From a virus (taxonomy: Duplodnaviria; Caudoviricetes), in the IMG/VR virus record IMGVR_UViG_3300011429_000003, positions 2,184 through 66,183 of that record: DNA of 64,000 nt; one strand, written 5' to 3'. Positions 47,748 to 64,000 of this stretch are shown in pieces; positions within the stretch are counted from its first letter, which is position 1; each line of letters opens with the position of its first letter. Position numbers and translations under genes: made by a program. Under the pieces are notes generated by a model. The model searched no databases. It was not told the DNA's origin and saw only the letters and a list, made by a program, of their open reading frames with translations.

Positions 47748-47751
47748 GGGT

Positions 47752-47825: not shown

Positions 47826-47836
47826 AGTAAATTCGC

Positions 47837-47990: not shown

Positions 47991-47994
47991 TACG

Positions 47995-48145: not shown

Positions 48146-48149
48146 CATG

Positions 48150-48905: not shown

Positions 48906-49286
48906 CCTTTTCCTCCTTCTCGCCCTCTGTCAGTTTGAACCCAGGCTCGTCCCAGTGGGCGAAGACGACGGGATCCGCCTGGCCGTACCGGAGCACCATG
49001 AACGGGTCCGGTACCTTGATGTCCAGCTCGCTCGCGTAGAACGCGGTTTTCTCCTTGCCCAGCGCTGTCTGCAGTGCTGCGGCGCGGCGCACGGCGAAGA
49101 TCGGCACGTCCTTGGTGTACGCGGTACCGCCCAGGAAGCACCCGTCCTGCTCCCGCGCGCCGATGTTGTCCTTGGGCGCAGGCCCCACCGGCAGCCACGC
49201 CCACACGCCAGGCTTGCCCCAGCTGTTGCGGTCGCTGTCTTACTCTTGATCTTCTTGCGCTTGGCGCGCTCACGCAGGCCGATCAC
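48889..49286 (-). pseudogene. Hypothetical gene with apparent 1-nt frameshift near 49240 (paralog-like to 2833-3408)
   Basis: SD+GTG at 49286 reads VIGLRERAKRKKIKSK, then the conserved part (PDPFMVL...FAHWDEPGF) is in another frame. Confidence 0.45.
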
Positions 49287-49479
49287 CGGTGGCACCTCCC
49301 TCACCCGCCTGCTTGGCCTCCAGCTCAGCCACGCGGGCGGCGGTTACACGCTCGTCCTCCTCCAGCGTCGCGATCTTGGTCTGCGCCTCGGTGCGCAGGC
49401 GGTTGAGCCGCGTCTGGATCTTCTTGAGCATACTGCGCTGGGCTGTCAGGTCCAGCTTCTCCTTGTACGTCAGTGTCAT
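49270..49479 (-). CDS. Small coiled-coil protein
   Basis: SD GGAGGAG. Confidence 0.6.
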   Translation of the reverse strand: MTLTYKEKLDLTAQRSMLKKIQTRLNRLRTEAQTKIATLEEDERVTAARVAELEAKQAGEGGATGDRPA

Positions 49480-49521
49480 TCCTCTCCTCCTCCGTTATGG
49501 GCGGGGCGCGGGGCTCCGCTG

Positions 49522-49638
49522 CTACGCACCGACTGGCTGCGGTACCGGTTCCTGCGCAGGGGTTTCCTCGCGCTGCGGCGTGGTCGCCTCCTGCTGCCTC
49601 TTCTCTTCCTCGCGCAGGTGCTCGTTCTCTCCACACAT
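49522..49638 (-). CDS. 38-aa acidic peptide
   Basis: GAGGAGG SD; MCGENEHLREEEKRQQEATTPQREETPAQEPVPQPVGA. Confidence 0.45.
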   Translation of the reverse strand: MCGENEHLREEEKRQQEATTPQREETPAQEPVPQPVGA

Positions 49639-49668
49639 AGGGTTGTCCTCCTCTCTGGTGTTAGTAGG

Positions 49669-50919: not shown

Positions 50920-51255
50920 TTACTTTTCCTCCTTGGTCTGTGCTTCCATCTCCTGCACCAGCAGCTGCGCATCTCGCAGCGCGTACTGGGCCTTCGTCAC
51001 GTCACGCTGCGCGGCGTGCTCCTGATGCCACCCGGTACCCTTGGCCAGGGCCAGCTGGTCCTCGGCCGTGCGTAGTGTGGCCTCGCAGTTCTTCACGGCA
51101 GCGTGGGCCATCTTCAGCTTCGCGGCCCGCCACGCCTTGGGCCGGAAGTTGGGGAAGTACGGTATCGTCCGGTCGGCTGCTGGCCACACCACCTGCGTGA
51201 GCAGGATGAACGCGACAAGCACCATGACGATACCGTAGAAGATCACGATCGGCAT
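50920..51255 (-). CDS. Membrane-anchored hypothetical protein
   Basis: N-terminal TM then coiled coil. Confidence 0.6.
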   Translation of the reverse strand: MPIVIFYGIVMVLVAFILLTQVVWPAADRTIPYFPNFRPKAWRAAKLKMAHAAVKNCEATLRTAEDQLALAKGTGWHQEHAAQRDVTKAQYALRDAQLLVQEMEAQTKEEK

Positions 51256-51663
51256 CTACTTCAGCTCCCCCGCCGCCTTGTTCAGGTAGGCGATCACGCG
51301 TGACAGTTTCTCAGCCACGACGGGATCGTTCGTGTCGTCGAACAGCTGCTTGCCCGCGTAGGCTTTGGCGTCCTGGACCTTGAGCCACAGCTGGCCGCTG
51401 GCGTCCGCGCGGTGGTGTCCGTTGGTGCCGGGCGCAGGGCTACCGAAGTCCTGCGACAGGATCTCCGGTGCCACCTTGAGCACCTTGGCCACCGCCTTCA
51501 GCGTGTCGTGCCGGGGCTTGCCCTTGCCGCCGCGCCACGTGGCCACGGCGCTGGCCGCCATGCCCAGGCGTTCTGCGAGTGCGGTAGACGTGAACGAGTG
51601 CTCCGTCATCAGGCGGTCCAACGTGGTGTGGTCGAAGTGATTGAGCATACCTTTCTTGGCCAT
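51256..51663 (-). CDS. XRE-family HTH regulator
   Basis: FTSTALAERLGMAASAVATWRGGKGKPRHDTLKAVAKVL. Confidence 0.85.
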   Translation of the reverse strand: MAKKGMLNHFDHTTLDRLMTEHSFTSTALAERLGMAASAVATWRGGKGKPRHDTLKAVAKVLKVAPEILSQDFGSPAPGTNGHHRADASGQLWLKVQDAKAYAGKQLFDDTNDPVVAEKLSRVIAYLNKAAGELK

Positions 51664-51675
51664 GGTGCGTGCTCC

Positions 51676-52149
51676 TTATGCGTGCTTGCGCACGTGCTTG
51701 AGGCGCGCCCGCTCGATCTCGCTGTTCACCTTCGCAAGTTCGGACAGGTGCTTGTACTGGCCCTGCAGGCTCGTCAGTTTCCGCAGGGCTGTCTGCAGGA
51801 GCTGATCTCTCATCTCCTGGTCGGCCATCACGTCTGCGAAGTTGTGGTAGCCTTTCCTGTTCTCCAGGGACACGTAGGCCCTGACCTTCTTGCCGCCGAC
51901 CGTAGTCTGCAGGCTGCTGATGAGACGACGTGCCTGGGTGCGGCGGTACCTGCGCGCCGCCTGCTTGTCGTCCCACTCGAACAGCTTGGCGCACTCGCTG
52001 CGAGCGGCCTTGTGCGCGTATGCCACGACGTCGTCTGCATCCAGTACGTTGTCGTTCTCTGCACACAGCTCAGCCAGTTCCTTGCCCACACGCTCCGGAT
52101 CCATAGCCGGGTTGTGGATGCCGAATATCTCGGTGAACGTGTACTTCAT
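51676..52149 (-). CDS. Conserved phage hypothetical protein
   Basis: LFEWDDKQAARRYRRTQARRLI motif. Confidence 0.7.
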   Translation of the reverse strand: MKYTFTEIFGIHNPAMDPERVGKELAELCAENDNVLDADDVVAYAHKAARSECAKLFEWDDKQAARRYRRTQARRLISSLQTTVGGKKVRAYVSLENRKGYHNFADVMADQEMRDQLLQTALRKLTSLQGQYKHLSELAKVNSEIERARLKHVRKHA

Positions 52150-52174
52150 CGGTCGTGCCTCCTAGGGAACAAGA

Positions 52175-52190
52175 TGCCAACACAGTACCA
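52175..52190 (-). promoter_or_regulatory. Possible sigma54-type promoter
   Basis: TGGTACTGTGTTGGCA = GG-N10-GC in the 52150-52213 gap. Confidence 0.3.
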
Positions 52191-52213
52191 TGGGGCGTAA
52201 CGAGATGACAACA

Positions 52214-54445
52214 TTAAAATATTTCCCGTCCCAGGGCCTCCTCCTTGGCCCAACTGCTCTGGAACCCGTACAGCCCATCCCAGTACACGCGGAGCTCGTG
52301 CAGCGGTGGGAACTGCAGGCTGTAGCGCCGCGCGCCCTTGCTGCTGCGCACGCGCCTAGGGTAGCCGGTTGGGCACACGCTGCGCAGGAACATGGACAGC
52401 TTGACAGCGCTCCCGCGCCGTGGCACGTTGTACTGCACGCAGCTGCGCACGTAGTCGCCGACCAGCTCGTCTACCGGCACCTCGGTCTCGAACGTGTCGG
52501 CTTGCAGCTTCTCCAGCCACCACTCGTGCATCGGCCCCAGACTGTGCATCTTCTGCTCCATCAGGGCGGCGGTAGTGGGTACGTTGCGCACGTCGAAGCC
52601 CTGCAGGTCGTGCGTCATCAGCATGTGTAGCAGGTGCTCGCGCCCACCGCGTGCCATGTCCTTGGCGATGGCCTGGAAGTAGCGCGTGTCCTTCTGGTGG
52701 CTGTCGCCCACGTCCAGCACGAAGAACCGGCGCTCTGTAGCACCCATGGGCACTACCCACTCGCTGTTGCTGGCTAATATAAGGTGGATGAAGTTGGGGC
52801 TGACCTCCGCGTCCACGCCCTTGTGCTCTATCATCATGCTCTCCTCTGTGATCAGCGTCTTCAGCACGGACTCGTGCTTCTTGTCGCCAGCGAAGAACGC
52901 CTCGTCGCCGAACAGCACCACACAGTCGCGCAGGTGCGCGTTGAAGCTGCCCACCAGATGCTTGGCGTCGGCCACCGGCAGGAAGTGGCGCCCCCACAGG
53001 CTGCCGAAGTGTTTCGCGAAGAACGACTTGCCGGTACCGCTCTTGCCGCGCAGCACCACCGCCGTCTCGCCGGGGCTGTCGGGCTTCTGCACGGCGCGCG
53101 CCAGCCAGCCCAGCAGGTAGCTGTAGTACTCCTCCACTCCGCCGCAGATGTTGTCGCGCAGATGCGCCAGGTAGCCCGCGTGCTTGTCGCCGACGGCGGG
53201 CGTACACGAGAAGCCCTGCCACAGGTTGTACGCGTTGGGTACCTCTTGGTTGGGGCTGAACACGAGGTAGTCGTACTGGCGGCGCCCGGGGTGGCCCAGC
53301 CACCACGCGCCCAGCTGCACCTGCTTCTTGCCGATCGTCACGTACTCGCTGCTGTAGCGGTTGCGGAAATCTTGGAACGACTGCTTGGTCAGGCGGGGCC
53401 GGTTGAGCACGTTGTCGTACACCTCCTCCACCACCTTGCACTTGCCGCCCAGGTTGCCGATCACGACGAAGCGCTCGTTCAGCTTGCGCAGCTGCGGATC
53501 CTCCACCTCGTCCTTAGCACGTGCCATCTGCCGGGTGGCGTACTTGCGTGCGTTGCTGCCCTTGTCCAGTATGCTGCTGCTGATCTCGAAGTTGGGGTCG
53601 GTGAGTACCGCGTAGATCACCTCGTCCGGTACCTTGCAGCGCACCAGCTGGCACACCACGTCGAACACCCACGCGCTGCGGCTGTTGTCTCCCTGCTTGG
53701 GCGTGTCTGGGTCGTGCCCCTGCACGATCACCATCTTCACGCGGTCAGGTACGCCCCACTTGGCCAGCTCGTCCACGCTGCCCAGGTGTTTCACCTCGTC
53801 TGGCACCGTGACCTTGGCCGCCTCCGCACCGGCAGGCTGCAGCACGGCAGGCGTGAAGTTGGCCAGCGTGTACACCGCCTCAGGGTCGTGGTGGTGCACC
53901 TCGGCCATGGTGGCCACGCGGCCACGCTCCACCTTCTTGGCGTCCGGTATGTTCATGGTACCGGGCAGCCGCATGATGCGATCCACGTTGAAGCAGTGGT
54001 CGCCGCCCAGGAGGTTCTCCAGCTGCTTGTTGTACGCCTCCACCTTGGTGGGTGGGTCGGTGATCGCCTCTTTCAGTTGCCAGAACGCCTGATAGCCGCC
54101 GCCGCTGAAGATGATGAACGTGGGCGCCGGTACGAACTCCGTGAGCGCCTTCTTGATGCGCTCAAACTCCGTGGTCAGGTCCTCGCGCGCGCGCGCGTCC
54201 ACGTCTACGTGCAGGTACGCGGCGGCGGTGATGTCGTCCTTCTGGGCCTTCTTGGTCAGCGGGCGGCTGCTGCGGTTGACGTTGAAGTACAGGTTGCGCT
54301 TGCCGTTGTGCTTGGCTGCCCACGTGACGGCGTCCTGCATCTCAGAGAATGTCACCGTCTCCATGCCCTTGCGGTCTACCGTGATGGACGTGAGCACCCA
54401 CGGCCCGCCAGGGTGGAACGCCTGCAGGAAGCTAGCTGTGTTCAT
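52214..54445 (-). CDS. Primase-helicase (RepB-like primase plus SF3/D5-like P-loop)
   Basis: LHVDVD, FSGGGYQAFW, DRIMRLPGT; LRGKSGTGKS Walker A, FGDEAF Walker B, ILASN motif C. Confidence 0.9.
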   Translation of the reverse strand: MNTASFLQAFHPGGPWVLTSITVDRKGMETVTFSEMQDAVTWAAKHNGKRNLYFNVNRSSRPLTKKAQKDDITAAAYLHVDVDARAREDLTTEFERIKKALTEFVPAPTFIIFSGGGYQAFWQLKEAITDPPTKVEAYNKQLENLLGGDHCFNVDRIMRLPGTMNIPDAKKVERGRVATMAEVHHHDPEAVYTLANFTPAVLQPAGAEAAKVTVPDEVKHLGSVDELAKWGVPDRVKMVIVQGHDPDTPKQGDNSRSAWVFDVVCQLVRCKVPDEVIYAVLTDPNFEISSSILDKGSNARKYATRQMARAKDEVEDPQLRKLNERFVVIGNLGGKCKVVEEVYDNVLNRPRLTKQSFQDFRNRYSSEYVTIGKKQVQLGAWWLGHPGRRQYDYLVFSPNQEVPNAYNLWQGFSCTPAVGDKHAGYLAHLRDNICGGVEEYYSYLLGWLARAVQKPDSPGETAVVLRGKSGTGKSFFAKHFGSLWGRHFLPVADAKHLVGSFNAHLRDCVVLFGDEAFFAGDKKHESVLKTLITEESMMIEHKGVDAEVSPNFIHLILASNSEWVVPMGATERRFFVLDVGDSHQKDTRYFQAIAKDMARGGREHLLHMLMTHDLQGFDVRNVPTTAALMEQKMHSLGPMHEWWLEKLQADTFETEVPVDELVGDYVRSCVQYNVPRRGSAVKLSMFLRSVCPTGYPRRVRSSKGARRYSLQFPPLHELRVYWDGLYGFQSSWAKEEALGREIF

Positions 54446-54755
54446 TCCAGTACCTGAGCAGCTCCGTGGGGTTGGCGTCGCCACGCTCCATCAGCACGAC
54501 CCACATCCGACTGCGCCGCATCTCCGCGGCGATCTCCTTCTGCGCCTTGCCGCTGCGTTTCCGCAGCACTACACACTTCTCGCAAGGCGTAGGTACGATC
54601 TCACTGACTGGCTTCGTTATCTCCCGCGTCCCGCGCTCCCATGCGACGTATCTACTGACGGGGATCCTGTAGCGGCGAGCAGCCCGCGTCTGAGACTCGC
54701 CTCTTCGTCTGCGCTCAAGCAGTAGGCACTCTGCCTGCGTGAGTGTGAAAGCCAT
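54432..54755 (-). CDS. Tandem HTH DNA-binding protein
   Basis: SQTRAARRYRIPVSRYVAWERG and AQKEIAAEMRRSRMWVVLMERG. Confidence 0.7.
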   Translation of the reverse strand: MAFTLTQAECLLLERRRRGESQTRAARRYRIPVSRYVAWERGTREITKPVSEIVPTPCEKCVVLRKRSGKAQKEIAAEMRRSRMWVVLMERGDANPTELLRYWNEHS

Positions 54756-55138
54756 GCGACCAGTTCCTCCTCGTCTATCCCGTGGCCCCAATACTTATCT
54801 GCCAGATCCATGGCGAGCGACGCGCGCGACATCGTACCGATCTTCAGTGCTGCGACGGCACCATCTATCAGTATCCACTCGTTGTGACACTGGACCATGA
54901 ACCATGCCTGTCCACCGGCGCGTCTCCAGTTGAGCAACCAGTAGCGCTGCTGCGGTGTGAAATCAAACTTGACGTGTGTGGAAGCTGTACGTGGCCAGCT
55001 GCGTAGCCACTTGAGCTCGAGCCAACCGTGGCGGTATGCTACGTCCGGCGTACCTGGCTGTGCAAGATTCTCCACTGGAAACGCGCTAAGTGGTCGCAGC
55101 ATCTGTACCACCTGGCTGCGCATCGCCTTCTCGCTCAT
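54617..55138 (-). CDS. PD-(D/E)XK nuclease (Holliday junction resolvase / VRR-NUC-like)
   Basis: VENLAQPGTPDV...WLELK...FTPQQRYWL. Confidence 0.75.
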   Translation of the reverse strand: MSEKAMRSQVVQMLRPLSAFPVENLAQPGTPDVAYRHGWLELKWLRSWPRTASTHVKFDFTPQQRYWLLNWRRAGGQAWFMVQCHNEWILIDGAVAALKIGTMSRASLAMDLADKYWGHGIDEEELVAWLSHSRRQSAYCLSADEEASLRRGLLAATGSPSVDTSHGSAGRGR

Positions 55139-55356
55139 GTCTTCCTCGGCTTTCTGACGACCCCCGGTATCATCGCTATCGCGTTCAGCAGGTAGTCGTC
55201 TGTCACGTGTGCTGTCTCCAGGCCCAGGAACTTCAGCTCCTGCTTTATGGACACTATCACCAGACGCTCCTGCTCCTCTCGTGGCAGGTGTTTCCACAGG
55301 AACCGTGGAGGCTTGTCGCCGTACTTGGCCAGCGCGCTCTTCAGGTTCTCGTCCAC
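55135..55356 (-). CDS. Hypothetical protein
   Basis: Operon packing. Confidence 0.5.
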   Translation of the reverse strand: MDENLKSALAKYGDKPPRFLWKHLPREEQERLVIVSIKQELKFLGLETAHVTDDYLLNAIAMIPGVVRKPRKT

Positions 55357-55359
55357 GGT

Positions 55360-57276
55360 TCACGTCGCGGTCTTCGTGGCGCCCCAGTTGGCACCGAAGG
55401 TCAGGTCCACCCTACTGGGCACCTGTAGCTTGACACAGTTTCGCATGATGTCGGCCATCTCCTCTCCCTGTGTGCGCTCGCGCACGCTGGCGTTGAGCTC
55501 GTCGTGCACCTGCAGCTGTACCGGGATGCCCGCCTTGTGCACCTCTATCAGCGCCTTCTTGGTCTGGTCCGCGCTGCTCGGCTGGATGAGGAAGTTCAGC
55601 GCCTTGTGTGTCCAGTCGCGCGTGCCGTCGTGGCGCAGCGGGAACCGGCACCGGCGCCCCAGCACCGTGATGATATAGCCGCGCTGCTCCGCCTTGCGCA
55701 TGCACAGCTGCGACAGCTCCTTGACGAACGGCACCGCGTCGTTGAACTTGTCCAGCAGCTTCTGAGCCTCGTCGCCGGCGACCTCTATCTGGCGGCCCTC
55801 GTAGTTGGTGATCCACTTGGTGGGTAGGTTCACACTGCGCGCTAGCTTGGCGCTGCCCATGCCGTAGCATAGGCCGAGGAAGATGTTCTTGCACGGGTCA
55901 CGGTGCCGCTTCTTGGTGGGCTTGTCCCAGCTGTCCCAGGCTTCCTGGCCGTAGATGAAGATCGTCATCATGTTGTGGTTGTCCGCCGTTGGGTCGTTGC
56001 GATACCTGTCGGCCATCTCCTTGGCACCTCGCAGGCCGCACAGCTCCGCGAAGTGAGTGAGCATGCGCGGTTCCTGCTGGCTGTAGTCGGCGCTGGCCCA
56101 GGTGCAGCCCTCGTCCGCCACGTAGATGGCGCGCCACATGGGGCCGAACTCGTCGCGGATCGGTTGCTGCTGCAGGTTGGGGTTGGCCATGCTGAGGCGC
56201 GCCCGTGCGCCCACCAGCGCGCCGTACTCACGCTCTCCGCGTAGCTGGTTGAACGTGGCATGTATCCTGTCGCCGACGAGATGCGCGCGCACGCTGGCCA
56301 CGAACGTCGTGCGCAGCTTGTTCACCTTGCGCGCGCGTAGTATGGCCGCCGCCGCCTTGCTGCCCCCGCTCGCGTTGAGCAGCGCCTTGTCTACCTTGGG
56401 CTGCCCACTGGGCGTGCGGCCCAGGGTCACGCCGTCGGCCAGCAGCGCCTTCACCACGAGATCCTTCTTCCACACGCCGTCCACAGGTACGTCTATCGCG
56501 GTGGCGGTGCGCACCGCCTGCAGCGCCAGCTTCTCCTCCTGCAGCGCCCAGTCCTCAACTTGCTGCAGCGCGTCCAGGTCTACACGAATACCCCTACGTG
56601 TCATCGCGAGCAGTACCGGCTGCAGCTGGCTCTCCAGATCGTAGATCTGAAGTAGATCTTGCTGCTCTAGCTCCCGCTCCTGCCTGCGGCTGATGAGCAG
56701 CGGTAGGCGCGCGTCGTGCTCCGCGTAGGGGCCGACGTACTTGCTGTGGAGCTGGTGGAACTGCCCCTTGGGCACGCCCGCGTTGGCGCGTGCGCGCTCT
56801 AGGAGATCGGTGTTCTTGCCGGGGTAGCCCCAGCGCCGCGCCACTGCGTCCAGGCTGTAGCTGTCCTGGAGCTCGTCCAGCAGCGGATCCGCCAACATGG
56901 TGTCCCGCTGCCACTTGATGCTAGGAAACGTGACTCCAGCCTCGGCCAGGTAGTCCAGGTCGTAGTTGAGATTGTGCCCGACGACGGTGCCTGTGTAGTT
57001 GCTTGCCTCGGTACGTAGATAGGACAGTACGGATCCGACTGTGAGGTTGCCACCGCCCTCGTGGCGCATCGGCAGGTAGTAGGCGGGTCCGTCCTCCAGC
57101 GCGAAGCTGACACCGATCAGGTGGCCGCCGCTGCGCACGCTGGGGCCGGTTTCCTTCAGGTGTGGATCGTACGTCTCCACATCTACGCCCACGCGGGCGG
57201 CGCCGCGCCAGCTGGGCAGCTGTGCGATGTCCGGCGGTGTCCAGTCGCTGGCTACGTCGAACAGCGGCAGCTGCAC
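55360..57276 (-). CDS. polA: DNA polymerase I-like (family A) with 3'-5' exonuclease
   Basis: DVETYD, HNLNYD, YAEHD exonuclease motifs; ADYSQQEPR (A), CKNIFLGLCYG (B), QVHDE (C). Confidence 0.96.
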   Translation of the reverse strand: MQLPLFDVASDWTPPDIAQLPSWRGAARVGVDVETYDPHLKETGPSVRSGGHLIGVSFALEDGPAYYLPMRHEGGGNLTVGSVLSYLRTEASNYTGTVVGHNLNYDLDYLAEAGVTFPSIKWQRDTMLADPLLDELQDSYSLDAVARRWGYPGKNTDLLERARANAGVPKGQFHQLHSKYVGPYAEHDARLPLLISRRQERELEQQDLLQIYDLESQLQPVLLAMTRRGIRVDLDALQQVEDWALQEEKLALQAVRTATAIDVPVDGVWKKDLVVKALLADGVTLGRTPSGQPKVDKALLNASGGSKAAAAILRARKVNKLRTTFVASVRAHLVGDRIHATFNQLRGEREYGALVGARARLSMANPNLQQQPIRDEFGPMWRAIYVADEGCTWASADYSQQEPRMLTHFAELCGLRGAKEMADRYRNDPTADNHNMMTIFIYGQEAWDSWDKPTKKRHRDPCKNIFLGLCYGMGSAKLARSVNLPTKWITNYEGRQIEVAGDEAQKLLDKFNDAVPFVKELSQLCMRKAEQRGYIITVLGRRCRFPLRHDGTRDWTHKALNFLIQPSSADQTKKALIEVHKAGIPVQLQVHDELNASVRERTQGEEMADIMRNCVKLQVPSRVDLTFGANWGATKTAT

Positions 57277-57277: not shown

Positions 57278-57394
57278 TCAGTGCCCCCACGCCATACGTG
57301 TCACCCAGATGAACACCCACCACGCGCCCAGGGCTAAGGCCAGCGTGAACGCGATCAGGAGCAGCGCCTTGACGATGGTGAAGAAGTCTCTCAC
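57278..57394 (-). CDS. Small membrane protein
   Basis: GTGA overlap; one TM segment. Confidence 0.45.
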   Translation of the reverse strand: MRDFFTIVKALLLIAFTLALALGAWWVFIWVTRMAWGH

Positions 57395-57783
57395 GTGCCC
57401 ACCTGCCGTGCGCGCACTTCTGCTTCCACCAGCATCAGGTAGCGGCGCAGATCGCGGATATCGTCTATCAAGCCTTCCTCGCGCGGATCCGCCTGTATGT
57501 GGGCGAGGATATCCCACATCACGACAGCAGTGCCTTGCTGCGTGTCGTCGTCAGAGCCAGCTGCTTCCTCTTCCTTGACCTGTTTCTCGATGCGATCCCA
57601 CTTACGCGCGAGCATCATGAAGGCACCGACGCCCCCACGTTTCTTCCAGCTATCGCCGTAGCTTTCCTCCGCCTTGCGCAGGCCCGCTACGTCTCCAGCA
57701 GCGACAGTGTCCAGCGTCTTGTGTAGGCTGGCCAGGTCTTCCGCCGCGAGCACCTCCAGGAAGTCCAGGTACGTCTTGATCAT
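57391..57783 (-). CDS. MazG-like nucleotide pyrophosphohydrolase (modification-associated)
   Basis: SYGDSWKKRGGVGAFMMLARKWDRIE...DDIRDLRRYL. Confidence 0.65.
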   Translation of the reverse strand: MIKTYLDFLEVLAAEDLASLHKTLDTVAAGDVAGLRKAEESYGDSWKKRGGVGAFMMLARKWDRIEKQVKEEEAAGSDDDTQQGTAVVMWDILAHIQADPREEGLIDDIRDLRRYLMLVEAEVRARQVGT

Positions 57784-57956
57784 AGCGGTTCTATCCCTTC
57801 CGGTAGCGGCACGTTCTCCGTCCAGCCTAGCATCTCATCCGGCACGTCGTCGCCGAACTTGTCGCGGAACTTCTCCTGTGCTTCCGCCAACGTGTCGGCC
57901 TCGAAGTACAGCGGATCGTTCTCTCCGTCTACGGAGTTGATGACCTTGTAGATCAC
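57780..57956 (-). CDS. Small acidic hypothetical protein
   Basis: GTGA/ATGA overlaps, SD AGGAGG. Confidence 0.55.
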   Translation of the reverse strand: MIYKVINSVDGENDPLYFEADTLAEAQEKFRDKFGDDVPDEMLGWTENVPLPEGIEPL

Positions 57957-58453
57957 AGCAGCGCCTCCTGTTTCGTGTTGAGGTGGACCTGGCGCACAGG
58001 CTCCGGTACCCAGCTGCTGTTGAGCAGCTCGTCGCACTTGGCCTTCACTTCCAGCAGCAGATCGTTGCCGAACTTCTCCTCGCGCAGGCAGAACAGGTAT
58101 AGCTCCAGCAGATCTAGCCCACGTAGCCAGTCGCGCTCCGCGTCGGACAGACTGTGTATGTGCACGCCCATCTCAGCAGCCGTCACGCGTTCCGCCTTCT
58201 CCAGCATGCTGGTCAGGTCGGGCCAACGTTCCTTCGTGTGGCGGGGCACGTCTCCCACTTGGTACTCTGGGAGATCATGCTCCAGGCACGACATCACCAG
58301 CTGATGAGACGGTGGGTTCTTGCCGGGCCACAGATGGTACAGCAGGACTGCCATGCCCCAGCTGTGCTGCGCGATGCTGTACGGCAGGTGGTGCGGGCGC
58401 GTGTGCAGCCGCTCCACGTGGCCTGCGTCAATCAGCTTCGGTACGTGCGTCAT
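57953..58453 (-). CDS. HD-domain 5'-deoxynucleotidase (YfbR-like)
   Basis: RLHT...SIAQHSW...LEHDLPEYQVGDVP. Confidence 0.85.
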   Translation of the reverse strand: MTHVPKLIDAGHVERLHTRPHHLPYSIAQHSWGMAVLLYHLWPGKNPPSHQLVMSCLEHDLPEYQVGDVPRHTKERWPDLTSMLEKAERVTAAEMGVHIHSLSDAERDWLRGLDLLELYLFCLREEKFGNDLLLEVKAKCDELLNSSWVPEPVRQVHLNTKQEALL

Positions 58454-59450
58454 GCTTCTGTCTCCTCCGTTGTAGCCACTCTATCACGGCCCGACGCCAG
58501 TCTGTAGCGCCGATACCACCGGCCCGCACCAGCGCGAGCTCGTAGTCATGCTGCTTGTGTGCGTCGTGTGCGAGCACCATAGGCAGCGCCACGCGCCTGA
58601 AGAACGGTTCCTGGTAGCCCATGGCCTTGGCGCCCACGTCCAGGAACGTAGCTAGCTCCTGCTCCCAGCGTTCGGCGTTCACCATGAACAGATCGTAGGG
58701 CTGCACGTTGTCGTAGGGGTTCTCCCACTGCACCACTCGGTGCAGCTGGTGGACCTTGTCGGCGAGCGGGCGTAGGGGCTCGAACACGTCCACGTAGGCG
58801 TGCCAGTTGTCGCTGACCTGCCAGTACGTGCCTACGTTGCGCCCCAGGCGGGCCGCAACGTACTCCTGCAGATAGCTGAAGTGTACCGCGTTGGCGCCGT
58901 AGCAGCCCCAGATGATGTCGTTGCTACGGTTGAACACGGTCATGTCCAGCATGCCTGCCGCGTTCACCTGGAAGTGGGCCACCAGATTGCAGGGTACGTC
59001 CTTGCCGTCTCGCCCCAGATCCGTGGTGTGTTGCCACATCTGCAGCACGGCGCGCCTGTCTTCCGGATACTTGCGCAGCTGCTCCACGATCTTGTTGAGC
59101 TGATCCAGTGGCGGTGCGCAGCCGCCGCGCCACCGGTAGCCGTAGGCGCCGTGGAACGTCTTGCCGTCGTCGCTGAACTGCGCCATGCGCCCCACGAAAC
59201 GTGTCAGGCTCTTCACGTCGTTGCGCCCGCCCAGCATCCACAACGACTCGTAGAAGTGGAAGAACGGGTTGGCGTCTCTCTCCGGCCAGAAGAGAACACG
59301 TTCCCTTGGGAACGCGTATCGCGTGGTCACCGGTTCCGGTGCCACCAGCGCCTTGCCGTTGCGCGTGTCGCGTGGCTGGCCCCACTGGCCCAGAAGCCTG
59401 ATGGCTTCTGGGAGGGCCTCGTGTACGTTGCGTACAGGTAGTACGATCAT
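58428..59450 (-). CDS. Thymidylate synthase-fold dUMP hydroxymethylase (predicted)
   Basis: DANPFFH, YGYRWR, DRRAVLQMW, KDVPCN (catalytic Cys), FNRSNDIIWGCYGAN (Asn at the dUMP-specificity position), SDNWHAY. Confidence 0.8.
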   Translation of the reverse strand: MIVLPVRNVHEALPEAIRLLGQWGQPRDTRNGKALVAPEPVTTRYAFPRERVLFWPERDANPFFHFYESLWMLGGRNDVKSLTRFVGRMAQFSDDGKTFHGAYGYRWRGGCAPPLDQLNKIVEQLRKYPEDRRAVLQMWQHTTDLGRDGKDVPCNLVAHFQVNAAGMLDMTVFNRSNDIIWGCYGANAVHFSYLQEYVAARLGRNVGTYWQVSDNWHAYVDVFEPLRPLADKVHQLHRVVQWENPYDNVQPYDLFMVNAERWEQELATFLDVGAKAMGYQEPFFRRVALPMVLAHDAHKQHDYELALVRAGGIGATDWRRAVIEWLQRRRQKHDARTEAD

Positions 59451-60409
59451 ACCGACACCTTCGCCACAGCTGCATGCAGTTGTTCCTTCAGCAGCGTCTG
59501 GTAGTGCTCACGCCAGCGCACCTGATCCACGGCGATCCGTTCCGCGTTGGCCAGCGCGCGTGCGACGTCATCGTGGCTACGCACGATCCACTCTGGCTCC
59601 ATGCTGAGGCCCGCGCGCTTGAAGGTACCGGTGCAGCGCGCGTCCACCAGGATGGCCATGCCCGCCGACAGCGCCTCGTAGAAGCGGTTCGCCAGGCTGC
59701 AGTAGGCCGTGTCGCTCCAGTCATCGTGCGTGTATATAGTGGCGCGGTACCTGGTCAGCGCGGCTATCAGTGGGTTCAGTTGGCCCACGTAGTTGGCGTT
59801 CGGCAGGAACTCCTTGAATTTCTGCACGGACTGCGGCGCGGTGCTTACAGTAACCGGGAACTGACCGTGTAGCAGCTGGCGCAGGCGCCCTTCTCTGCCC
59901 TTGCGCAGCGCGCCCCAGTACAGCACGCCAGGCTCTCTGTCCACGTGTGTCATGCCGTCGCGCGGTTCGTATGTCAGCTGGTTCCAGTTCACGTAGCTGT
60001 CCAGCGGATAGCGGGCGGGGCGCAGCTGGCCGGGCACCGTACTCCACAGGCTGTAGCCGTAGTAGTCGCCAGCCTCGGCCCGGTGCTTGCCCCAGCGCCG
60101 CTGCTGATGCGACTTGGACTGGCTGGGTGGTCGCATCTTGTAGTCGTTGTTGACGAACACCGCGTTGCGCGCCAACCACAGCCCCTCTGCGCTGAACCGA
60201 CGCACCGCCTCCGGGGCGAAGCCGGTGGGGCTGTTCACCAGCACGAACAGATCTAGCGCCTGCAGCTGCTCGTCGGTGCAGCGCGCTACGTCCTCCTCCG
60301 TGTGTACCAGCGGCGCGCCAAGCTGCTGCGCCACGTAGTTGGCGATGCGCACGCTGGCCACCATGCTACCGGGAGAACACTTGGTCAGATGACAGACAAG
60401 GGCGTTCAC
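59447..60409 (-). CDS. GT-B glycosyltransferase, T4 beta-glucosyltransferase-like
   Basis: YWGALRKGRE and ATIYTHDD...LANRFYEALSAGMAILVD parallel BGT YGGSFRSGQRE and LIIGDKNY...TLRVWETMASDAVMLID. Confidence 0.65.
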   Translation of the reverse strand: MNALVCHLTKCSPGSMVASVRIANYVAQQLGAPLVHTEEDVARCTDEQLQALDLFVLVNSPTGFAPEAVRRFSAEGLWLARNAVFVNNDYKMRPPSQSKSHQQRRWGKHRAEAGDYYGYSLWSTVPGQLRPARYPLDSYVNWNQLTYEPRDGMTHVDREPGVLYWGALRKGREGRLRQLLHGQFPVTVSTAPQSVQKFKEFLPNANYVGQLNPLIAALTRYRATIYTHDDWSDTAYCSLANRFYEALSAGMAILVDARCTGTFKRAGLSMEPEWIVRSHDDVARALANAERIAVDQVRWREHYQTLLKEQLHAAVAKVSV

Positions 60410-61413
60410 AGTTTCATCTCCTCCGCGTACAGGTTGCCCACCAGCTGGTGGTCGTGTTGCTTCAGTAGCTCGTCGCCAGCTTCTACGACACGCTGCTCGT
60501 GTTCACCGTAGTAGCTGCCGTGCCGTAGCACACCGGCTAGCTGCTCGGCGCCGGACACGGTGACCACGTGCTTGCCACGCACCAGTTCACCGGGTACGGT
60601 GAACCAGTCCTCGTGCATGATGTTCACGGCACGCGCGTCCATGGCTTCCAGTAGCGGGTACTGCGTGCCGCCGCCGTCGTCCGGGAAACGGGTCATGTCC
60701 ACGCAGTACGCGGCGCGCGCACAGATAGCTGGCGCCGCCTCGAACGTCATCGGGAACGCCTTGTGCTGGCCCTGCTTGAAGACGTCCGGGTACCGCTGGG
60801 CTAGCTGATAGCTGTAGATGCGGTGCTCCGCGCCCAGTATCTCGACGCGCCGCTCCGGTGGCAGCAGGCGGTTGGCCTCCAGCAGCAGGTGCGTGCGCTT
60901 CACGCTCTTCACGTGTGTCACGGACACCGCCACCTTGTCGCGCAATACACCGCTAGGCGCGCTGCGCATGTACGGGTGCGGCAGCCAAAGTGCTTCCGGG
61001 AAGTAGCGTCGCATGGACTGCCTGATGAGAATGGGGCGCGTGGGCAGCTTGGTGTCGGGCTTGATGTGATCGTGCACCTTGAACTCCATGGCGTCGTGTA
61101 CCACCAGGCGTGCGCCCGCCGCTAGCAGCTGCGGTACCAGCGTGTACTGCGGCTGGTCCTTGGCTGCGGCAGCCGCCGTGATGATGGCCGGTGTGTGCTT
61201 GACCAGTTGCAGTAGATCGCGCGCGGAGAAGTTGCGATACCACGTGTGCGCGAACCTACCGAAAGGGCGCAGCTTGTCCTCCGTGCGAATGCGTGCGCGG
61301 TATATCATCGGCTGATGCCCCGCTGCCTGCAGCGCCGCGTGCAGGTGTGCCGTGTACGTGGTGGTGCCGCCGCCGAGCCCGGGGCGCAGGAACAGGATAG
61401 CTACCTCACTCAT
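60406..61413 (-). CDS. GT-B glycosyltransferase
   Basis: GLGGGTTTYTAHL N-terminal loop; DMTRFPDDGGGTQYPLLEAMD (GT-B E motif). Confidence 0.7.
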   Translation of the reverse strand: MSEVAILFLRPGLGGGTTTYTAHLHAALQAAGHQPMIYRARIRTEDKLRPFGRFAHTWYRNFSARDLLQLVKHTPAIITAAAAAKDQPQYTLVPQLLAAGARLVVHDAMEFKVHDHIKPDTKLPTRPILIRQSMRRYFPEALWLPHPYMRSAPSGVLRDKVAVSVTHVKSVKRTHLLLEANRLLPPERRVEILGAEHRIYSYQLAQRYPDVFKQGQHKAFPMTFEAAPAICARAAYCVDMTRFPDDGGGTQYPLLEAMDARAVNIMHEDWFTVPGELVRGKHVVTVSGAEQLAGVLRHGSYYGEHEQRVVEAGDELLKQHDHQLVGNLYAEEMKL

Positions 61414-62230
61414 AGCGGCGCTTCAGCTTTCTGCCTTGCATGGCACGCACGTACTTGTCGAACTCGCATAGGGTGTGCTCCACCTCTCGCAGCTCCCAGG
61501 GGCGTTCCGGCCACGGCCACAGCTGCGTGTGCCTGCTGTCGGCCAGCAGGCTCTGCATCAGCGGTACGGCGGTGGCTGGTTTGCACCAACCGTGCACGTG
61601 CTCCAGCCCACGCCGCGCGCCTGGCCCCAGGTTGGCCCAGGTGTTCACGTCCGGTGCGTCTTCCAGTACGCACGTATGCCGCAGGTCGGTGACCACCTCG
61701 TATGCCATGAACGGCCCCAACCCGGGGGCGCCCATCAGCAGCTCGTGCGCGTGCTGCAGCGTCTTGGGCTTCGCGGCGATGAACTTGGCGCTGGTCTCCT
61801 CGAAGCGCTCCATGCACCAGCAGATGCTGTCCAGCTTGTTGACGTCTCGCACGCCCGGCCTGGGCAGTATCATGTAGGCACCGGTGACCAGCGGGCGGAG
61901 GCCCCTAACTGCGGCGCGCACCAGCTGCTCGTCCCAGCCGTAGTTCAGCAGCACGTTCTTGATCTTCTCGCCCGTCTCTATGCGCGTGAACCAGCGGAAC
62001 GCGACGGTAGCCCACAGCACCGCGTCGTACTCCCAGTGTAGGGGCTCACGTATGTTGTCGCGGAACCAGGCTGTGGTCTTGTCGTCCTCCCTGAAGACGT
62101 GGCAGAATCGCCACTGCTGCAGTACGGGGTCTTCCGTCCAGGGCTTGGGCTGGCCCGCGTCACGCCGCAGCTTAATGTGATAGCGTTCGCGTGCGTAGGC
62201 GAAGAACGCCTCGGTGCCTTGTGGTTTCAT
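61406..62230 (-). CDS. 5-hmdU DNA kinase family (aGPT-Pplase1 helical family)
   Basis: PWTEDPVLQQWRFCHVFREDDKTT, VTGAYMI, GPFMAYEVVTDL, GPGARRGL, EVEHTLCEFDKY. Confidence 0.85.
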   Translation of the reverse strand: MKPQGTEAFFAYARERYHIKLRRDAGQPKPWTEDPVLQQWRFCHVFREDDKTTAWFRDNIREPLHWEYDAVLWATVAFRWFTRIETGEKIKNVLLNYGWDEQLVRAAVRGLRPLVTGAYMILPRPGVRDVNKLDSICWCMERFEETSAKFIAAKPKTLQHAHELLMGAPGLGPFMAYEVVTDLRHTCVLEDAPDVNTWANLGPGARRGLEHVHGWCKPATAVPLMQSLLADSRHTQLWPWPERPWELREVEHTLCEFDKYVRAMQGRKLKRRYE

Positions 62231-62439
62231 ATCTCCCGCTTGTGTAGCTGCGCGCGCAGTATCTGCACGAAGCGCAGCATCCCGACACGATGGTTGGGGT
62301 CCAACTCGAAGGTACTGAATATCTCCTGTGCCGCCTTGAGCGCCTCGTACGTTTTCCTGACAGCGTGCTGACGACCCAGCACGTAGGCGTAGGTGAGGGC
62401 AGCCACGAGAAGAACGAGAAGAATCAGGTCTGCTATCAT
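62227..62439 (-). CDS. Small membrane protein
   Basis: N-terminal TM; ATGA overlaps. Confidence 0.55.
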   Translation of the reverse strand: MIADLILLVLLVAALTYAYVLGRQHAVRKTYEALKAAQEIFSTFELDPNHRVGMLRFVQILRAQLHKREI

Positions 62440-62930
62440 CTCTTGACCTCCGCGCAGAACTCTATCAGTGCACGCCGCAGGCGGGCGTGTGCCTGCGTGT
62501 CGTTCCACACGCGGCACCTGCCGCTGGGGTGGGGCAGCGTCATGCAGTCTATGCCGTCCACCACGTACACGGTGCCCCACTGCCGGGGCGCGTCTGTGAA
62601 GGCGCGCTCCACCTTGCGCCCCAGCAGCACCAGCCGCGCGTTCTCCGGTGCGCCGTACTGCATGTGCTGGTCGGCCGCGTAGCTCAGCATCTCCTCGGCG
62701 TGCTTGGTGGCCAGGGCTGCGTTCCACGCACCACTTGTGGCACACGGAGGCAGCAGGTTGAACATATAGCTCACGCGGTCACCGCCAACTGCAAGCCAGC
62801 GCGTGCGCGTACTGCTGACAACCCGCAGCGCCGGGCTCAGCATGGGCTTCCAGTCCGCAGCCAGCCGGGCCTCCGCACGTGCGGACAGCTTCGGGTTGTG
62901 TATCCGCTCACCTACGGCTATCACGATCAA
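62436..62930 (-). CDS. Uracil-DNA glycosylase-superfamily-like protein
   Basis: VLLGRKV..AF and LPHPSGRCRVWN motif-B-like. Confidence 0.55.
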   Translation of the reverse strand: MIVIAVGERIHNPKLSARAEARLAADWKPMLSPALRVVSSTRTRWLAVGGDRVSYMFNLLPPCATSGAWNAALATKHAEEMLSYAADQHMQYGAPENARLVLLGRKVERAFTDAPRQWGTVYVVDGIDCMTLPHPSGRCRVWNDTQAHARLRRALIEFCAEVKR

Positions 62931-63093
62931 GGAGTTCCTCCCTGCGGCTGACGTGCCACCCACTGCAGAACTCACACTTGTACGCCACGTAACGGTTGTC
63001 GAACATCCTCCGCTTGCCCACCGCGTGGCCCGCCGCACCGTTGCGCGTGGTGAACTTCTTCTTGCCGTGACACACTTTCCGTTTCTTGCTCAT
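62908..63093 (-). CDS. Small basic zinc-finger-like protein
   Basis: CHGKKKF...YKCEFCSGWHVS. Confidence 0.6.
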   Translation of the reverse strand: MSKKRKVCHGKKKFTTRNGAAGHAVGKRRMFDNRYVAYKCEFCSGWHVSRREELLDRDSRR

Positions 63094-64000
63094 GGTAGTA
63101 CCGCCAACTGTTCGCACGCGCGCGTGACCGCCGTGTACAACCAGCGCCACCTGTCCTTGCCGAAACGTCTGCTCTCGTCTACGATCACTACGTTCCCCCA
63201 CTGACTACCCTGGGCCTTGTGGCACGTGAGCGCGTACCCGAACTGAAAGTGTTCGGCGTCGCGGGCCAGTGCCCAGGGGACCTCGTCGCCCATGAACGGC
63301 GCCTTGTGTGCCAGCACGGTGGGGCCGTCGTGCAGCTCCAACACTATGCCCAGCTCGCCCATGTCGCGGGCGTCGTCCACGCTGTACACCATGCCGTTCA
63401 GAATTCCGTACTCGTGATTGTTGCGCGTACACACCACCTTGTCGCCCGGCATGGGCAGCGGGTCGGTCATCTGCAGCAGATGACGAAGCCGCGTGTTGCA
63501 GTAGTTGCGCGTGTTGTTAGTGCCTACGATGACCTGGTCTGCCGCCTTGGCCAGCTCCTCGCTGGTGGGGCCATGCTGGTGGGCACCGCGCACCACGCAG
63601 GGGCTGTCGGCGGGGAGCCTGCGCTCCTCCCTTATAATGGTGGCCAGGTGCAGTATGGGGTTGTCGTGTGCCTGGCGGTGCACCTCGGTGAGCAGGGTGT
63701 CCGGGTCGCCCCGCATGAAGGCACCCTCACCGTACACGGGCGGCAGCTGGAACGGATCGCCGAGCACGAGCACCTTGCACCCGAACGACAGGATGTCGGC
63801 GGCCATCTGGTCGTTGACCATGCTGGCCTCGTCTATCACCAGGAGGTCGGCTTCCAGTAGCGGAGACATCAGATTCAAACTGAAGCTGGGCTTGCGCAAG
63901 TTCTCCTTCTCCAGGTCTATCGCGGTGCGCAGCTTCGCCAGATCTGGCGCGCTCACGTCCGCCTGGCTCAGCATCACTTCCAGCTGCTTCTGTAGTTCCT
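63090..64000 (-). CDS. SF1B RecD/Dda-like helicase, C-terminal part (runs off window end)
   Basis: IDEASMV, LGDPFQLPPV, LTEVHRQA, YALTCHKAQGSQW, WLYTAVTRA. Confidence 0.93.
   Translation of the reverse strand, partial: ELQKQLEVMLSQADVSAPDLAKLRTAIDLEKENLRKPSFSLNLMSPLLEADLLVIDEASMVNDQMAADILSFGCKVLVLGDPFQLPPVYGEGAFMRGDPDTLLTEVHRQAHDNPILHLATIIREERRLPADSPCVVRGAHQHGPTSEELAKAADQVIVGTNNTRNYCNTRLRHLLQMTDPLPMPGDKVVCTRNNHEYGILNGMVYSVDDARDMGELGIVLELHDGPTVLAHKAPFMGDEVPWALARDAEHFQFGYALTCHKAQGSQWGNVVIVDESRRFGKDRWRWLYTAVTRACEQLAVLP

Follow-up and report, generated by a model that had tools for sequence, protein, structure and literature searches.

A predicted kinase-less pathway for glycosylation of 5-hydroxymethyluracil in the DNA of an uncultured phage

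The replication module of an uncultured phage (Caudoviricetes; IMG/VR record IMGVR_UViG_3300011429_000003) probably encodes a kinase-less pathway that glycosylates 5-hydroxymethyluracil (5hmU) in DNA. The genome is complete (66,183 bp, with a DTR of 123 bp). Coordinates refer to the window, the whole 64,000-nt stretch analysed (positions 2,184 to 66,183 of the record). Neither this phage nor any close relative is in culture. The most likely product would be a glycosylated 5hmU, whether base-J-like, of mixed alpha and beta linkage, or bearing a disaccharide. An earlier note on this DNA had proposed a thymine-replacement cluster in which glycosyltransferases (GTs) stand in for the kinase/amino-acid-transferase branch. 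This part of its interpretation stands, with sugar-modified 5hmU as the likeliest outcome, whereas its DNA kinase and phosphate link do not.

The operon and its accessory genes

The genes had been described as one overlapping operon adjoining PolA. All of the ORFs are indeed present on the minus strand with tight overlaps, mostly of 4 nt (ATGA/GTGA type), the overlap being 8 nt between the aGPT-Pplase1-type gene (Pplase1) and GT1 and 26 nt between the thymidylate synthase (TS) and HD genes. PolA (55360..57276; this and all features below on the minus strand) is a family-A DNA polymerase with a 3'-5' exonuclease (PF00476, E 2e-49; PF01612). The gene block is headed by a Dda-like SF1 helicase gene, which spans the contig's terminal repeat: its C-terminal part lies at 63090..63977 (phrog_325, E 4e-67) and its Walker A part at genome bases ~282-305. 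Two small genes had been overlooked. One encodes a hydrophobic, membrane-like protein of 70 aa (62227..62439), with a frame favoured by GC3 and a 4-nt overlap with both neighbours, and the other an acidic protein of 58 aa (57780..57956), which overlaps the stop codon of the HD gene (GTGA). Neither protein had a family match.

The UDG-like call for the 164-aa product of 62436..62930 was weakly borne out. PF03167 was matched by 27 of 50 homologues (best E 1e-6), and the family profile reached E. coli MUG with E 0.017, the alignment falling on the PHPSG/PNPSG motif. Residues E8, R9, N58, P62, G104, P133, H134 and P135 are invariant. The gene has a TTG start at 62930 with a GGGAGG RBS 7 nt upstream; alignments with the 242 homologues retrieved at E<=1e-3 begin at residue 38-39 of the longer ORF. 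At 57953..58453, a YfbR-like HD-domain 5'-deoxynucleotidase was recovered (PF12917, E 1.5e-8; phrog_6047, E 2e-34), as previously called. The 130-aa product of 57391..57783 (p130), earlier read as a MazG-like pyrophosphatase, could not be confirmed as such: it had no match in Pfam, NCBIfam or the PDB, and MazG, dCTPase-type included, was matched nowhere in the genome. Homologues of p130 were found in 43 related loci, where they usually separate the TS/HD genes from PolA; their conserved core is SYGDSWKKRGGVGAFMMLARKWDR.

The PF18723 protein

The product of 61406..62230 had been assigned to the 5-hmdU DNA kinase family. Its sole family match is PF18723 ('HMUDK_hel', E 2e-43), whose Pfam name reads '5-hmdU DNA kinase, helical domain'. 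It contains no P-loop or Walker A motif, and its structure neighbours (Atlas) are HhH-GPD glycosylases (TM ~0.5). The protein is Pplase1, an aGPT-Pplase1-type paralogue of the amino-acid:DNA transferases (ADDTs) with a helix-hairpin-helix DNA-glycosylase-like fold, not a kinase. With PF18723 as its only family, Walker A absent and the P-loop kinase 5-HMUDK forming a separate family (PF18748), the kinase identity is ruled out. In M6-type phages, the two are separate genes (PAE1 Orf49 for PF18723 and Orf47 for PF18748; PMC9476957).

A search of the complete genome for PF18748 found nothing, even with the threshold relaxed to E<=10, and the only Walker A motifs found belong to the terminase, primase-helicase and Dda helicase. 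The earlier note had also suggested a whole-genome search for ADDT (aGPT-Pplase2, PF18724), and the complete 66,183-bp sequence contained none. Its remark that no transferase-type gene is visible thus holds for ADDT, but the protein taken for a kinase is an ADDT paralogue of clade 1, with an invariant Leu-Cys-Glu motif. TAGT (PF20691), Nmad5 and Tet_JBP (PF12851) were likewise absent from the complete genome, as were PLP and radical-SAM tailoring enzymes here, and a pooled Pfam scan of the 40 non-structural ORFs turned up no kinase or NDP-sugar gene.

Within the Leu-Cys-Glu motif, C255 and E256 were invariant in 32/32 homologues. An hhalign comparison with the ADDT profile, weak in itself (E 5e-4, probability 31%), placed the motif opposite the catalytic Cys region. 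Because the Cys-Glu pair resembles the ADDT catalytic pair, Pplase1 probably acts on 5hmU in DNA. It is the constant partner of the TS gene regardless of the downstream chemistry, co-occurring with TS in ADDT loci (25/26), GT1 loci (39/79) and GT2 loci (40/68), and it is often translationally coupled to a GT. This invariant tie to the GT slot, together with the catalytic-looking Cys-Glu, counts against the favoured reading, since plain O-glycosylation of 5hmU needs no such enzyme.

Pplase1 might also catalyse group transfer or processing and so alter the outcome, though this is rather unlikely; the pathway would then end in something other than a simple base-J-like O-glycoside. Through attack at C6, Cys255 would turn 5hmU or glycosyl-hmU into a species with an exocyclic methylene. 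From there, either unglycosylated 5hmU would end up as thymine, or a sugar would be joined by a non-glycosidic bond and later lengthened by the GTs. In PhiW-14, 5hmU is turned into thymine post-replicatively. The invariant motif, its position in the ADDT alignment, the co-occurrence with TS and the coupling to a GT all favour such a role, as does the C6-thiol mechanism of clade-2 enzymes, whose intermediate is converted to thymidine with borohydride (PMC8989533). However, hydroxide or an alkoxide would have to serve as leaving group if there is no kinase, a chemically demanding step, and the ADDT match between profiles is a weak one. There is also the case of M6 gp55, which we take, by gene order alone, to be the Pplase1 of that phage. 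It was dispensable for in vitro reconstitution of the first transfer step (PMC8989533).

The acceptor base and its glycosyltransferases

The TS homologue (58428..59450; PF00303, E 2e-21; phrog_5131, E 3e-123) carries Asn at the dUMP-specificity site, in agreement with the earlier reading. This residue, N187, aligns (HMMER) with the specificity Asn of canonical TS (N177, E. coli numbering) and with the Asp of the CMP hydroxymethylase MilA. The enzyme keeps D178, the D169 equivalent, and therefore lacks the 5-hydroxy-dCMP synthase signature. Its full-length identity to the TS of the M6-like phage PAE1 is 54%. Judged by its sequence, the homologue is of the uracil type, a predicted dUMP hydroxymethylase. 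A cytosine pathway, in which it would make 5-hm-dCMP or 5-hydroxy-dCMP for glycosylation by the GTs as in T4 or RB69, seems very unlikely. MilA is its best PDB sequence match (E 8e-20) and both GTs resemble T4 enzymes acting on 5hmC, but the specificity residue is Asn rather than Asp, Asp169 is kept, unlike in 5hodCMP synthases, and the PAE1 relative comes from a thymidine-hypermodifying phage. The lack of a dCTPase-type MazG match in the genome and the presence of Pplase1, a thymidine-pathway partner, point the same way.

Both GT-B calls agree with the structure predictions. GT1 (60406..61413; AF2 pLDDT 95.3) is GT4/T4-AGT-like and predicted to be retaining. Its nearest structure is T4 AGT (1y8z; VIA Z 25.0, rmsd 3.6 over 322 aligned residues), with HepE scoring equally well; its likeness to AGT is no higher than to ordinary GT4 enzymes, which also counts against the favoured reading. 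The family, with 224 relatives in IMG/VR, has the conserved motif DGGGTQYxxLEAMDAG. GT2 (59447..60409; AF2 pLDDT 94.5) is T4-BGT-like, as called, and predicted to be inverting. Here T4 BGT is clearly ahead in structure searches (Z 19.2-19.7, next fold 15.5), and hhalign to T4 b-gt (82%, E 1e-5) covers the donor-binding domain, pairing YxGxxRxGxRE and NRFYE/LRVWE. The database gene call for GT2 begins 15 codons later (305 aa).

In IMG/VR, the GT1-family loci (n=79) contain Pplase1 in 39 cases and TS in 37, with neither P-loop kinase nor ADDT (0/79 each). The GT2-family loci (n=68) are similar (Pplase1 40/68, TS 38/68, ADDT 0/68), with a kinase in five. The P-loop kinase follows ADDT (24/26 full-flank ADDT loci), not the GTs. 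The commonest gene order is Pplase1-GT-TS-(HD)-p130-PolA, with GT1 or GT2 filling the same slot. In GT loci lacking TS and Pplase1, Tet_JBP was the commonest recognised neighbour (12 and 7 of 73 ORFs scanned), and ParB and TAGT were also found. Both families thus neighbour one or the other of two independent routes to 5-hydroxymethylpyrimidine in DNA, a context which suggests that they are glycosyltransferases of this base and do not need a kinase.

That both GTs instead modify non-DNA acceptors (host envelope glycans or phage/host proteins), their place in the replication module being coincidental, is highly improbable. Cell-envelope biosynthesis often uses GT4-like folds, and some homologues carry the JGI annotation cell-wall glycosyltransferase, but in ~80 phage loci both families keep a fixed place between Pplase1 and TS, they adjoin Tet/JBP dioxygenases elsewhere, and the nearest fold to GT2 is, by a clear margin, T4 BGT. 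Least credible is a route in which a DNA kinase would phosphorylate 5hmU, with the sugar attached through the phosphate or displacing it: the Pfam label of the 61406-62230 product and a P-loop 5-HMUDK-like gene near GT2 in five distant GT2-family loci favour it, but the sequence already contradicts it, given that the PF18723 protein without a P-loop is a separate gene in M6-type cassettes, that PF18748 is missing, that Walker A motifs are confined to the three proteins named above and that no GT1-family locus has a kinase. With the DNA kinase absent from cluster and genome, a sugar joined via kinase-added phosphate is without basis, and since the 61406-62230 product is not a kinase, the cluster gives no reason to posit a new phosphate-linked sugar chemistry.

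For the favoured kinase-less pathway, we infer the enzymatic steps, sugar and linkage from the gene identities, folds, absences and co-occurrence observed directly. By analogy with the respective families, the TS homologue would convert dUMP to 5-hm-dUMP before replication, while the HD nucleotidase, and perhaps p130, would deplete the competing dTMP/dTTP pool. Host kinases would then yield hm-dUTP, and the phage PolA would insert 5hmU instead of T. After replication, the two GTs would draw on NDP-sugars of the host, of which UDP-glucose is the simplest choice, as no sugar-nucleotide gene appeared among the 40 non-structural ORFs of the genome. Fold and context, which alone guide the assignment of acceptor, donor sugar, anomeric outcome and order of action, suggest a retaining step by GT1 and an inverting step by GT2. 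Both may act on 5hmU in different sequence contexts, giving alpha and beta linkages as in T4, or one sugar may be placed on the other to form a disaccharide, as in T2/T6.

Related systems

The cassettes of M6/YuA/PAE1 and PaMx11 (Mesyanzhinovviridae; Pseudomonas), with which those of ViI, PhiW-14 and SP10 are grouped as thymidine hypermodification cassettes, share the position in the replication module beside PolA, the TS homologue (the 54% match), the HD 5'-deoxynucleotidase and Pplase1 (PF18723). They follow a common logic of 5hmU incorporation and subsequent modification on DNA (PMC8989533; PMC9476957). Unlike them, this phage lacks PF18748, PF18724, the PLP and radical-SAM tailoring enzymes and Nmad5, and has two GT-B enzymes between Pplase1 and TS. 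The pairing of one AGT-like and one BGT-like GT-B enzyme is shared with T4 glucosylation, as are a TS-fold hydroxymethylase (gp42 dCMP hydroxymethylase in T4) supplying the acceptor base before replication and, in GT2, the UDP-sugar-binding motifs of BGT. However, sequence identity to the T4 enzymes is ~10%, the base here is predicted to be uracil rather than cytosine, there is no dCTPase, and the HhH Pplase1 has no T4 counterpart.

The earlier note had regarded this chemistry as not known from phages. As a prediction, it is less unprecedented: TS, aG/PT-PPlase1, deoxynucleotidase and glucosyltransferase genes beside PolA have been described in pelagiphages (PMC9599517), and a preprint by Pyle et al. 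mentions ThyS-associated GT contigs (10.1101/2023.12.21.572611). We found no paper measuring the product of the TS, Pplase1 and glucosyltransferase set. PhiJL001 (Keylargovirus, an alphaproteobacterial phage) and HTVC023P-type pelagiphages have the same kinase-less architecture (PMC9599517), in the order gp18, gp19 (Pplase1), GT, TS, HD, PolA. They use TAGT (PF20691, GT-A-like), often with Nmad5, whereas this phage has neither and carries two GT-B enzymes from families that fill the same slot singly in other loci. Kinetoplastid base J (JBP1/2 and JGT) is alike in the predicted end product, glycosylated 5-hydroxymethyluracil in DNA. Here, however, 5hmU would come from a nucleotide-level TS homologue rather than from T oxidised in DNA by Tet/JBP enzymes, PF12851 being absent, and the transferases belong to GT-B, in contrast to the GT-A-like JGT (10.1101/2023.12.21.572611).

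Organization of the cassette

The gene cluster is real and coherent, and it is best predicted to provide a sugar-decorated replacement for thymine. Comparative genomic context carries most of the argument. The window (G+C content of 64%) spans bases 2184–66183 of a 66,183-bp IMG/VR virus record, which is rated 100% complete and ends in a direct terminal repeat of 123 bp. Among cultured phages, those nearest to the region belong to the Mesyanzhinovviridae: PAE1 (Yuavirus), Ab18 and Epa5, which infect Pseudomonas, and PhiJL001, an alphaproteobacterial phage. Their similarity is just ~70% nucleotide identity across the thymidylate synthase (TS) homologue and PF18723 genes.

The genes form a minus-strand string, which was called from frame-specific GC3 and start/stop overlaps. 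A Dda-like helicase (63090–63977), whose gene wraps around the contig end, is followed by the UDG-like protein, a 70-aa hydrophobic protein (62227–62439), the PF18723 protein, the GT-B glycosyltransferases GT1 and GT2, the TS homologue, an HD nucleotidase, a 58-aa protein (57780–57956) and a 130-aa protein, the last separated by a 114-nt gap from PolA (55360–57276). Most junctions of the operon have a 4-nt overlap; the overlapping-gene operon next to PolA described in the earlier note is therefore real. When the map is read as a circle, the block extends upstream of the window start (genome bases 388–3127, locus L197) with genes for a 488-aa SNF2-family helicase and for two proteins that match the Pam3 gp33-like and gp34-like families. 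This stretch ties the phage to the Pam3/M6 group.

Glycosyltransferases and their genomic neighbourhoods

GT1 (60406–61413) and GT2 (59447–60409) gave no significant match in Pfam or PHROG and none by sequence among PDB chains; matches came from folds only. Both folds were predicted with high confidence (pLDDT 95.3 for GT1 and 94.5 for GT2), and each protein has tens of metagenomic homologues. The best matches of GT2 were four T4 beta-glucosyltransferase (BGT) entries (Z 19.2–19.7), the next fold scoring 15.5, and its family profile matched the T4 b-gt sequence in the donor domain (hhalign probability 82%). The alignment places YWGALRKG-RE on IYGGSFRSGQRE and NRFYE on LRVWE, so that the RxGxRE and R..E UDP-glucose-binding motifs are aligned. 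With both fold and profile pointing to T4 BGT, the initial description of this enzyme as BGT-like was right. The invariant D74 is only a candidate for the equivalent of the catalytic Asp of BGT, D100.

For GT1, the best VIA-align match was T4 alpha-glucosyltransferase on HMU-DNA (1y8z; Z 25.0, 322 of 335 residues, rmsd 3.6), a top score shared with Anabaena HepE, with other GT4 enzymes scoring close behind. The GT1 profile aligned with the T4 a-gt sequence at an hhalign probability of only 14%. The conserved motif D-GGGTQYxxL-E is GT4-like, and the predicted fold is that of a GT-B/GT4-type enzyme. In tblastn searches of 50,697 cultured phage records, GT1 had no match and GT2 had weak matches only, in T5-like and Cronobacter S13-like phages. 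The closest metagenomic relatives (Logan/JGI) were 58–60% identical for GT2 and 49% identical for GT1, the latter on a 63-kb contig.

The GT1 family has 224 relatives in IMG/VR. In the best 79 loci, covering up to ±10 kb, aGPT-Pplase1 (the PF18723 protein; hereafter Pplase1) was found in 39, TS in 37 and a TAGT glycosyltransferase in 9, while neither the amino-acid:DNA transferase ADDT (aGPT-Pplase2) nor a P-loop 5-hmdU DNA kinase was retrieved (0/79). The two reference loci, L001 and L003, are left out of these counts. The 68 loci of the GT2 family contained Pplase1 (40/68), TS (38/68) and, in five cases, a P-loop kinase; ADDT and GT1 were both absent (0/68). The prevailing arrangement is Pplase1-GT-TS-(HD)-p130-PolA, all on one strand, p130 being the 130-aa protein, with either GT1 or GT2 in the glycosyltransferase slot. 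Both families occur together in the present phage and in no other sampled locus. Pairs of a GT-B enzyme with TAGT recur in relatives, and two-glycosyltransferase versions are thus common. Among the 26 ADDT loci with full flanks, 24 encoded the P-loop kinase and 25 encoded Pplase1 together with TS. The kinase therefore tracks ADDT and Pplase1 tracks the hydroxymethylase.

Where glycosyltransferase loci contained no TS or Pplase1, the commonest neighbour family was Tet_JBP (12 and 7 of the 73 ORFs scanned for GT1 and GT2, respectively); ParB, TAGT and radical-SAM/SPASM proteins were also found. Each glycosyltransferase family adjoins either of two independent sources of 5-hydroxymethylpyrimidine in DNA, a TS-type or a Tet/JBP-type one, which fits DNA glycosyltransferases that need just a hydroxymethyl group. 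This context suggests that the acceptor of both enzymes is a hydroxymethylpyrimidine in DNA, and the two GT-B families, with 224 and 68 relatives in IMG/VR, can be classed as probable glycosyltransferases of 5hm-pyrimidines in DNA.

Five distant GT2 loci (L135, L136, L146, L181 and L184) encode a P-loop kinase-like gene (phmmer E 1e-4 to 1e-12) alongside Pplase1 and GT2, with no ADDT in the available locus sequence. It is in these loci, not in the present phage, that a real kinase-plus-glycosyltransferase chemistry should be sought. One GT1-family locus, L019 (IMGVR_UViG_3300033148_005555), contains Pplase1, GT1, M6-type radical-SAM and PLP enzymes and TS, with no ADDT or kinase, and resembles a cross between the sugar branch and the amino-acid branch.

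The PF18723 protein

The protein encoded at 61406–62230 (274 aa) had been assigned to the 5-hmdU DNA kinase family. Its sole Pfam match is PF18723, "5-hmdU DNA kinase, helical domain" (E 2e-43, model positions 5–276 of 281), and it contains no Walker A motif. PF18748, the P-loop 5-hmdU DNA kinase, had no match anywhere in the complete genome at a threshold as lax as E<=10; PAE1 Orf47, used as the positive control, was matched (HMUDK_HMUD1) at E 8e-18. The Walker A motifs of the genome belong to the terminase, the primase-helicase and the Dda helicase, with no Walker A kinase ORF among them. When 40 non-structural ORFs (window 2363–17600 and 41203–55363) were pooled and scanned against Pfam, with matches read for the pool as a whole, neither a kinase nor a sugar-nucleotide enzyme was detected. 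In PAE1, Orf49 represents the PF18723 family, and Orf47, encoded by a distinct gene, is the true P-loop kinase. The published M6/SN1 cassette, in which the PF18723-type gene is named aGPT-Pplase1, has the order hydroxymethylase, Nmad5, aGPT-Pplase1, nucleotide kinase, rSAM, PLP enzyme and aGPT-Pplase2 (PMC9476957). Phosphorylation of 5-hmdU has been shown for P-loop proteins, M6 gp54 and others (PMC8989533). With no Walker A motif, no PF18748 in the genome and a separate kinase gene in PAE1, the kinase reading is rejected. The Pfam name probably stems from fused forms, since the ESM Atlas holds a cluster of 577-aa proteins containing both PF18723 and PF18748; the label "HMUDK_hel" leads annotators to call a kinase where none exists. 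The sugar-modified 5hmU proposed in the earlier note stands as the best prediction for the cluster, but the feature that had suggested new chemistry, a DNA kinase feeding the glycosyltransferases, is an annotation artefact that comes from how the Pfam family is named.

A whole-genome HMM search for aGPT-Pplase2 agreed with the initial impression that an amino-acid:DNA transferase is missing: PF18724, the ADDT family, had no match at E<=1, the positive control PAE1 Orf43 being retrieved at E 1e-46. The transferase proper is absent and a distant paralogue of it, the PF18723 protein, is present. The Atlas model of this protein (pLDDT 0.88) has a TM of 0.93 to a PF18723 cluster, followed by HhH-GPD DNA glycosylases (TM ~0.5), and its language-model features place it next to aGPT-Pplase3/ADDT clusters. 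The full-length PF18723 match and the HhH glycosylase-like helical fold, with no kinase domain, are those of aGPT-Pplase clade 1. Residues L254, C255, E256 and K259 are invariant across 32 aligned homologues. Profile–profile comparison of PF18723 with 25 ADDT proteins aligned 110 columns (E 5e-4, probability 31%) and placed the G-x-G-P-F hairpin on GFGPW and E-x-x-L-C-E on E-T-V-L-C-K. Single-sequence hhalign between the PF18723 profile and the PAE1 ADDT recovered the Cys motif only (probability 2.6%), and the profile matched no PDB sequence, although the ADDT structures 25qc (YuA type) and 8z2m (PaMx11 gp46) were included. The profile link is suggestive, an indication rather than proof. The essential Cys of ADDT, located in the aligned Cys region, attacks C6 of phosphorylated 5hmU (PMC8989533; PMC13458397).

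In the IMG/VR loci, Pplase1 follows the hydroxymethylase gene rather than the kinase or ADDT, which narrows the options for its function. This fidelity and the invariant Cys-Glu pair suggest catalysis on 5hmU in DNA. In vitro, the first transfer step did not require M6 gp55 (PMC8989533), which we take, from gene order alone, as the Pplase1 counterpart. One specific catalytic reading seems unlikely: with no kinase present, the Cys-Glu pair would convert 5hmU, or a glycoside of it, to an exocyclic methylene, and together with the glycosyltransferases this would yield either a non-glycosidic sugar link or a programmed partition of 5hmU between thymine and glycosyl-hmU. If true, this would be the first reaction assigned to clade-1 Pplases, which were named in 2013 and for which we found no report of function.

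Predicted hydroxymethylation, proposed pathway and additional genes

The TS homologue (58428–59450) matched PF00303 and phrog_5131. In HMMER alignments, its N187 aligns with the canonical TS specificity Asn (6auj; N177 in E. coli numbering) and with the Asp of the CMP hydroxymethylase MilA, confirming the Asn that had been noticed at the dUMP-specificity site. Its D178 corresponds to Asp169. TS homologues producing 5-hydroxy-dCMP carry D169N (2026; PMC13326640), and as Asp169 is retained here, a 5-hydroxy-dCMP synthase is rejected. Given N187, the conserved Asp169 and 54% full-length identity to the PAE1 enzyme, the protein is best read as a putative dUMP hydroxymethylase.

The UDG-like protein (62436–62930; TTG start, GGGAGG RBS) matched PF03167 at only E 0.03 by its own sequence. 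Of 50 homologues, 27 matched (best 1e-6), the family profile matched MUG at E 0.017, and E8, R9 and a PHP motif are invariant; the earlier UDG-like call is supported only at the family level, as a putative superfamily assignment. The HD nucleotidase (57953–58453) was correctly recognized and is YfbR-like.

The 130-aa protein (57391–57783) belongs to a conserved family with a near-invariant core, SYGDSWKKRGGVGAFMMLARKWDR; in 43 related loci its members usually lie immediately upstream of PolA. In most sampled TS/Pplase1 cassettes it sits between the TS/HD genes and PolA. Its previous reading as a MazG-like pyrophosphatase found no support: the protein and a 19-member profile matched nothing in Pfam, NCBIfam or PDB sequences, PF03819 (MazG) is absent from the genome, and the syntenic DUF3310 protein of PAE1 does not favour it. 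The single lead is a hint of DUF1599 in the Atlas (25% share). The protein is a candidate nucleotide-pool or polymerase accessory factor.

From family knowledge, hm-dUMP would be synthesized, the thymidine pool would be depleted and PolA would incorporate 5hmU. GT1, as a retaining enzyme, and GT2, as an inverting one, would glycosylate the DNA using host NDP-sugars. The product would be either monoglycosyl-hmU in a mixture of alpha and beta forms, as T4 has, or a disaccharide like that of T2/T6. The 5-HMUDK/ADDT pathway of M6, PaMx11, ViI and PhiW-14 shares the predicted TS-fold dUMP hydroxymethylase with this phage, whereas its kinase (PF18748) and transferase (PF18724) are both missing here. 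The base J pathway uses a Tet/JBP thymine dioxygenase and a GT-A JGT; here both glycosyltransferases are GT-B, and Tet_JBP (PF12851), TAGT, Nmad5 and dCMP deaminase are all absent from the genome. PhiJL001 has the same kinase-less cassette layout, but with a TAGT glycosyltransferase. In metaviromes, thousands of GT-A and GT-B contigs are associated with 5mYOX or ThyS (Pyle et al. preprint, 10.1101/2023.12.21.572611). Among the papers searched, we found none measuring glycosylated 5hmU made by such a cassette. What remains unusual is the pairing of AGT-like and BGT-like enzymes in one 5hmU cassette, together with the unexplained role of Pplase1. Should the prediction be correct, the DNA of this phage would contain glycosylated 5-hydroxymethyluracil produced by relatives of the two T4 glucosyltransferases, a thymine counterpart to the cytosine glucosylation of T-even phages and a base-J-like DNA reached by a route other than the kinetoplastid one.

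Additional genes were observed among the pooled ORFs (2363–17600 and 41203–55363), which encode a nicotinamide phosphoribosyltransferase (NAPRTase and NAMPT_N), a Fic/DOC protein, an RNA ligase 1 family protein, a GDSL lipase, an SprT-like protein and a GH108 endolysin. An SPFH/Band-7 protein of 416 aa (49669–50919) is encoded in the early region, adjoining RNA genes that had been remarked on separately.
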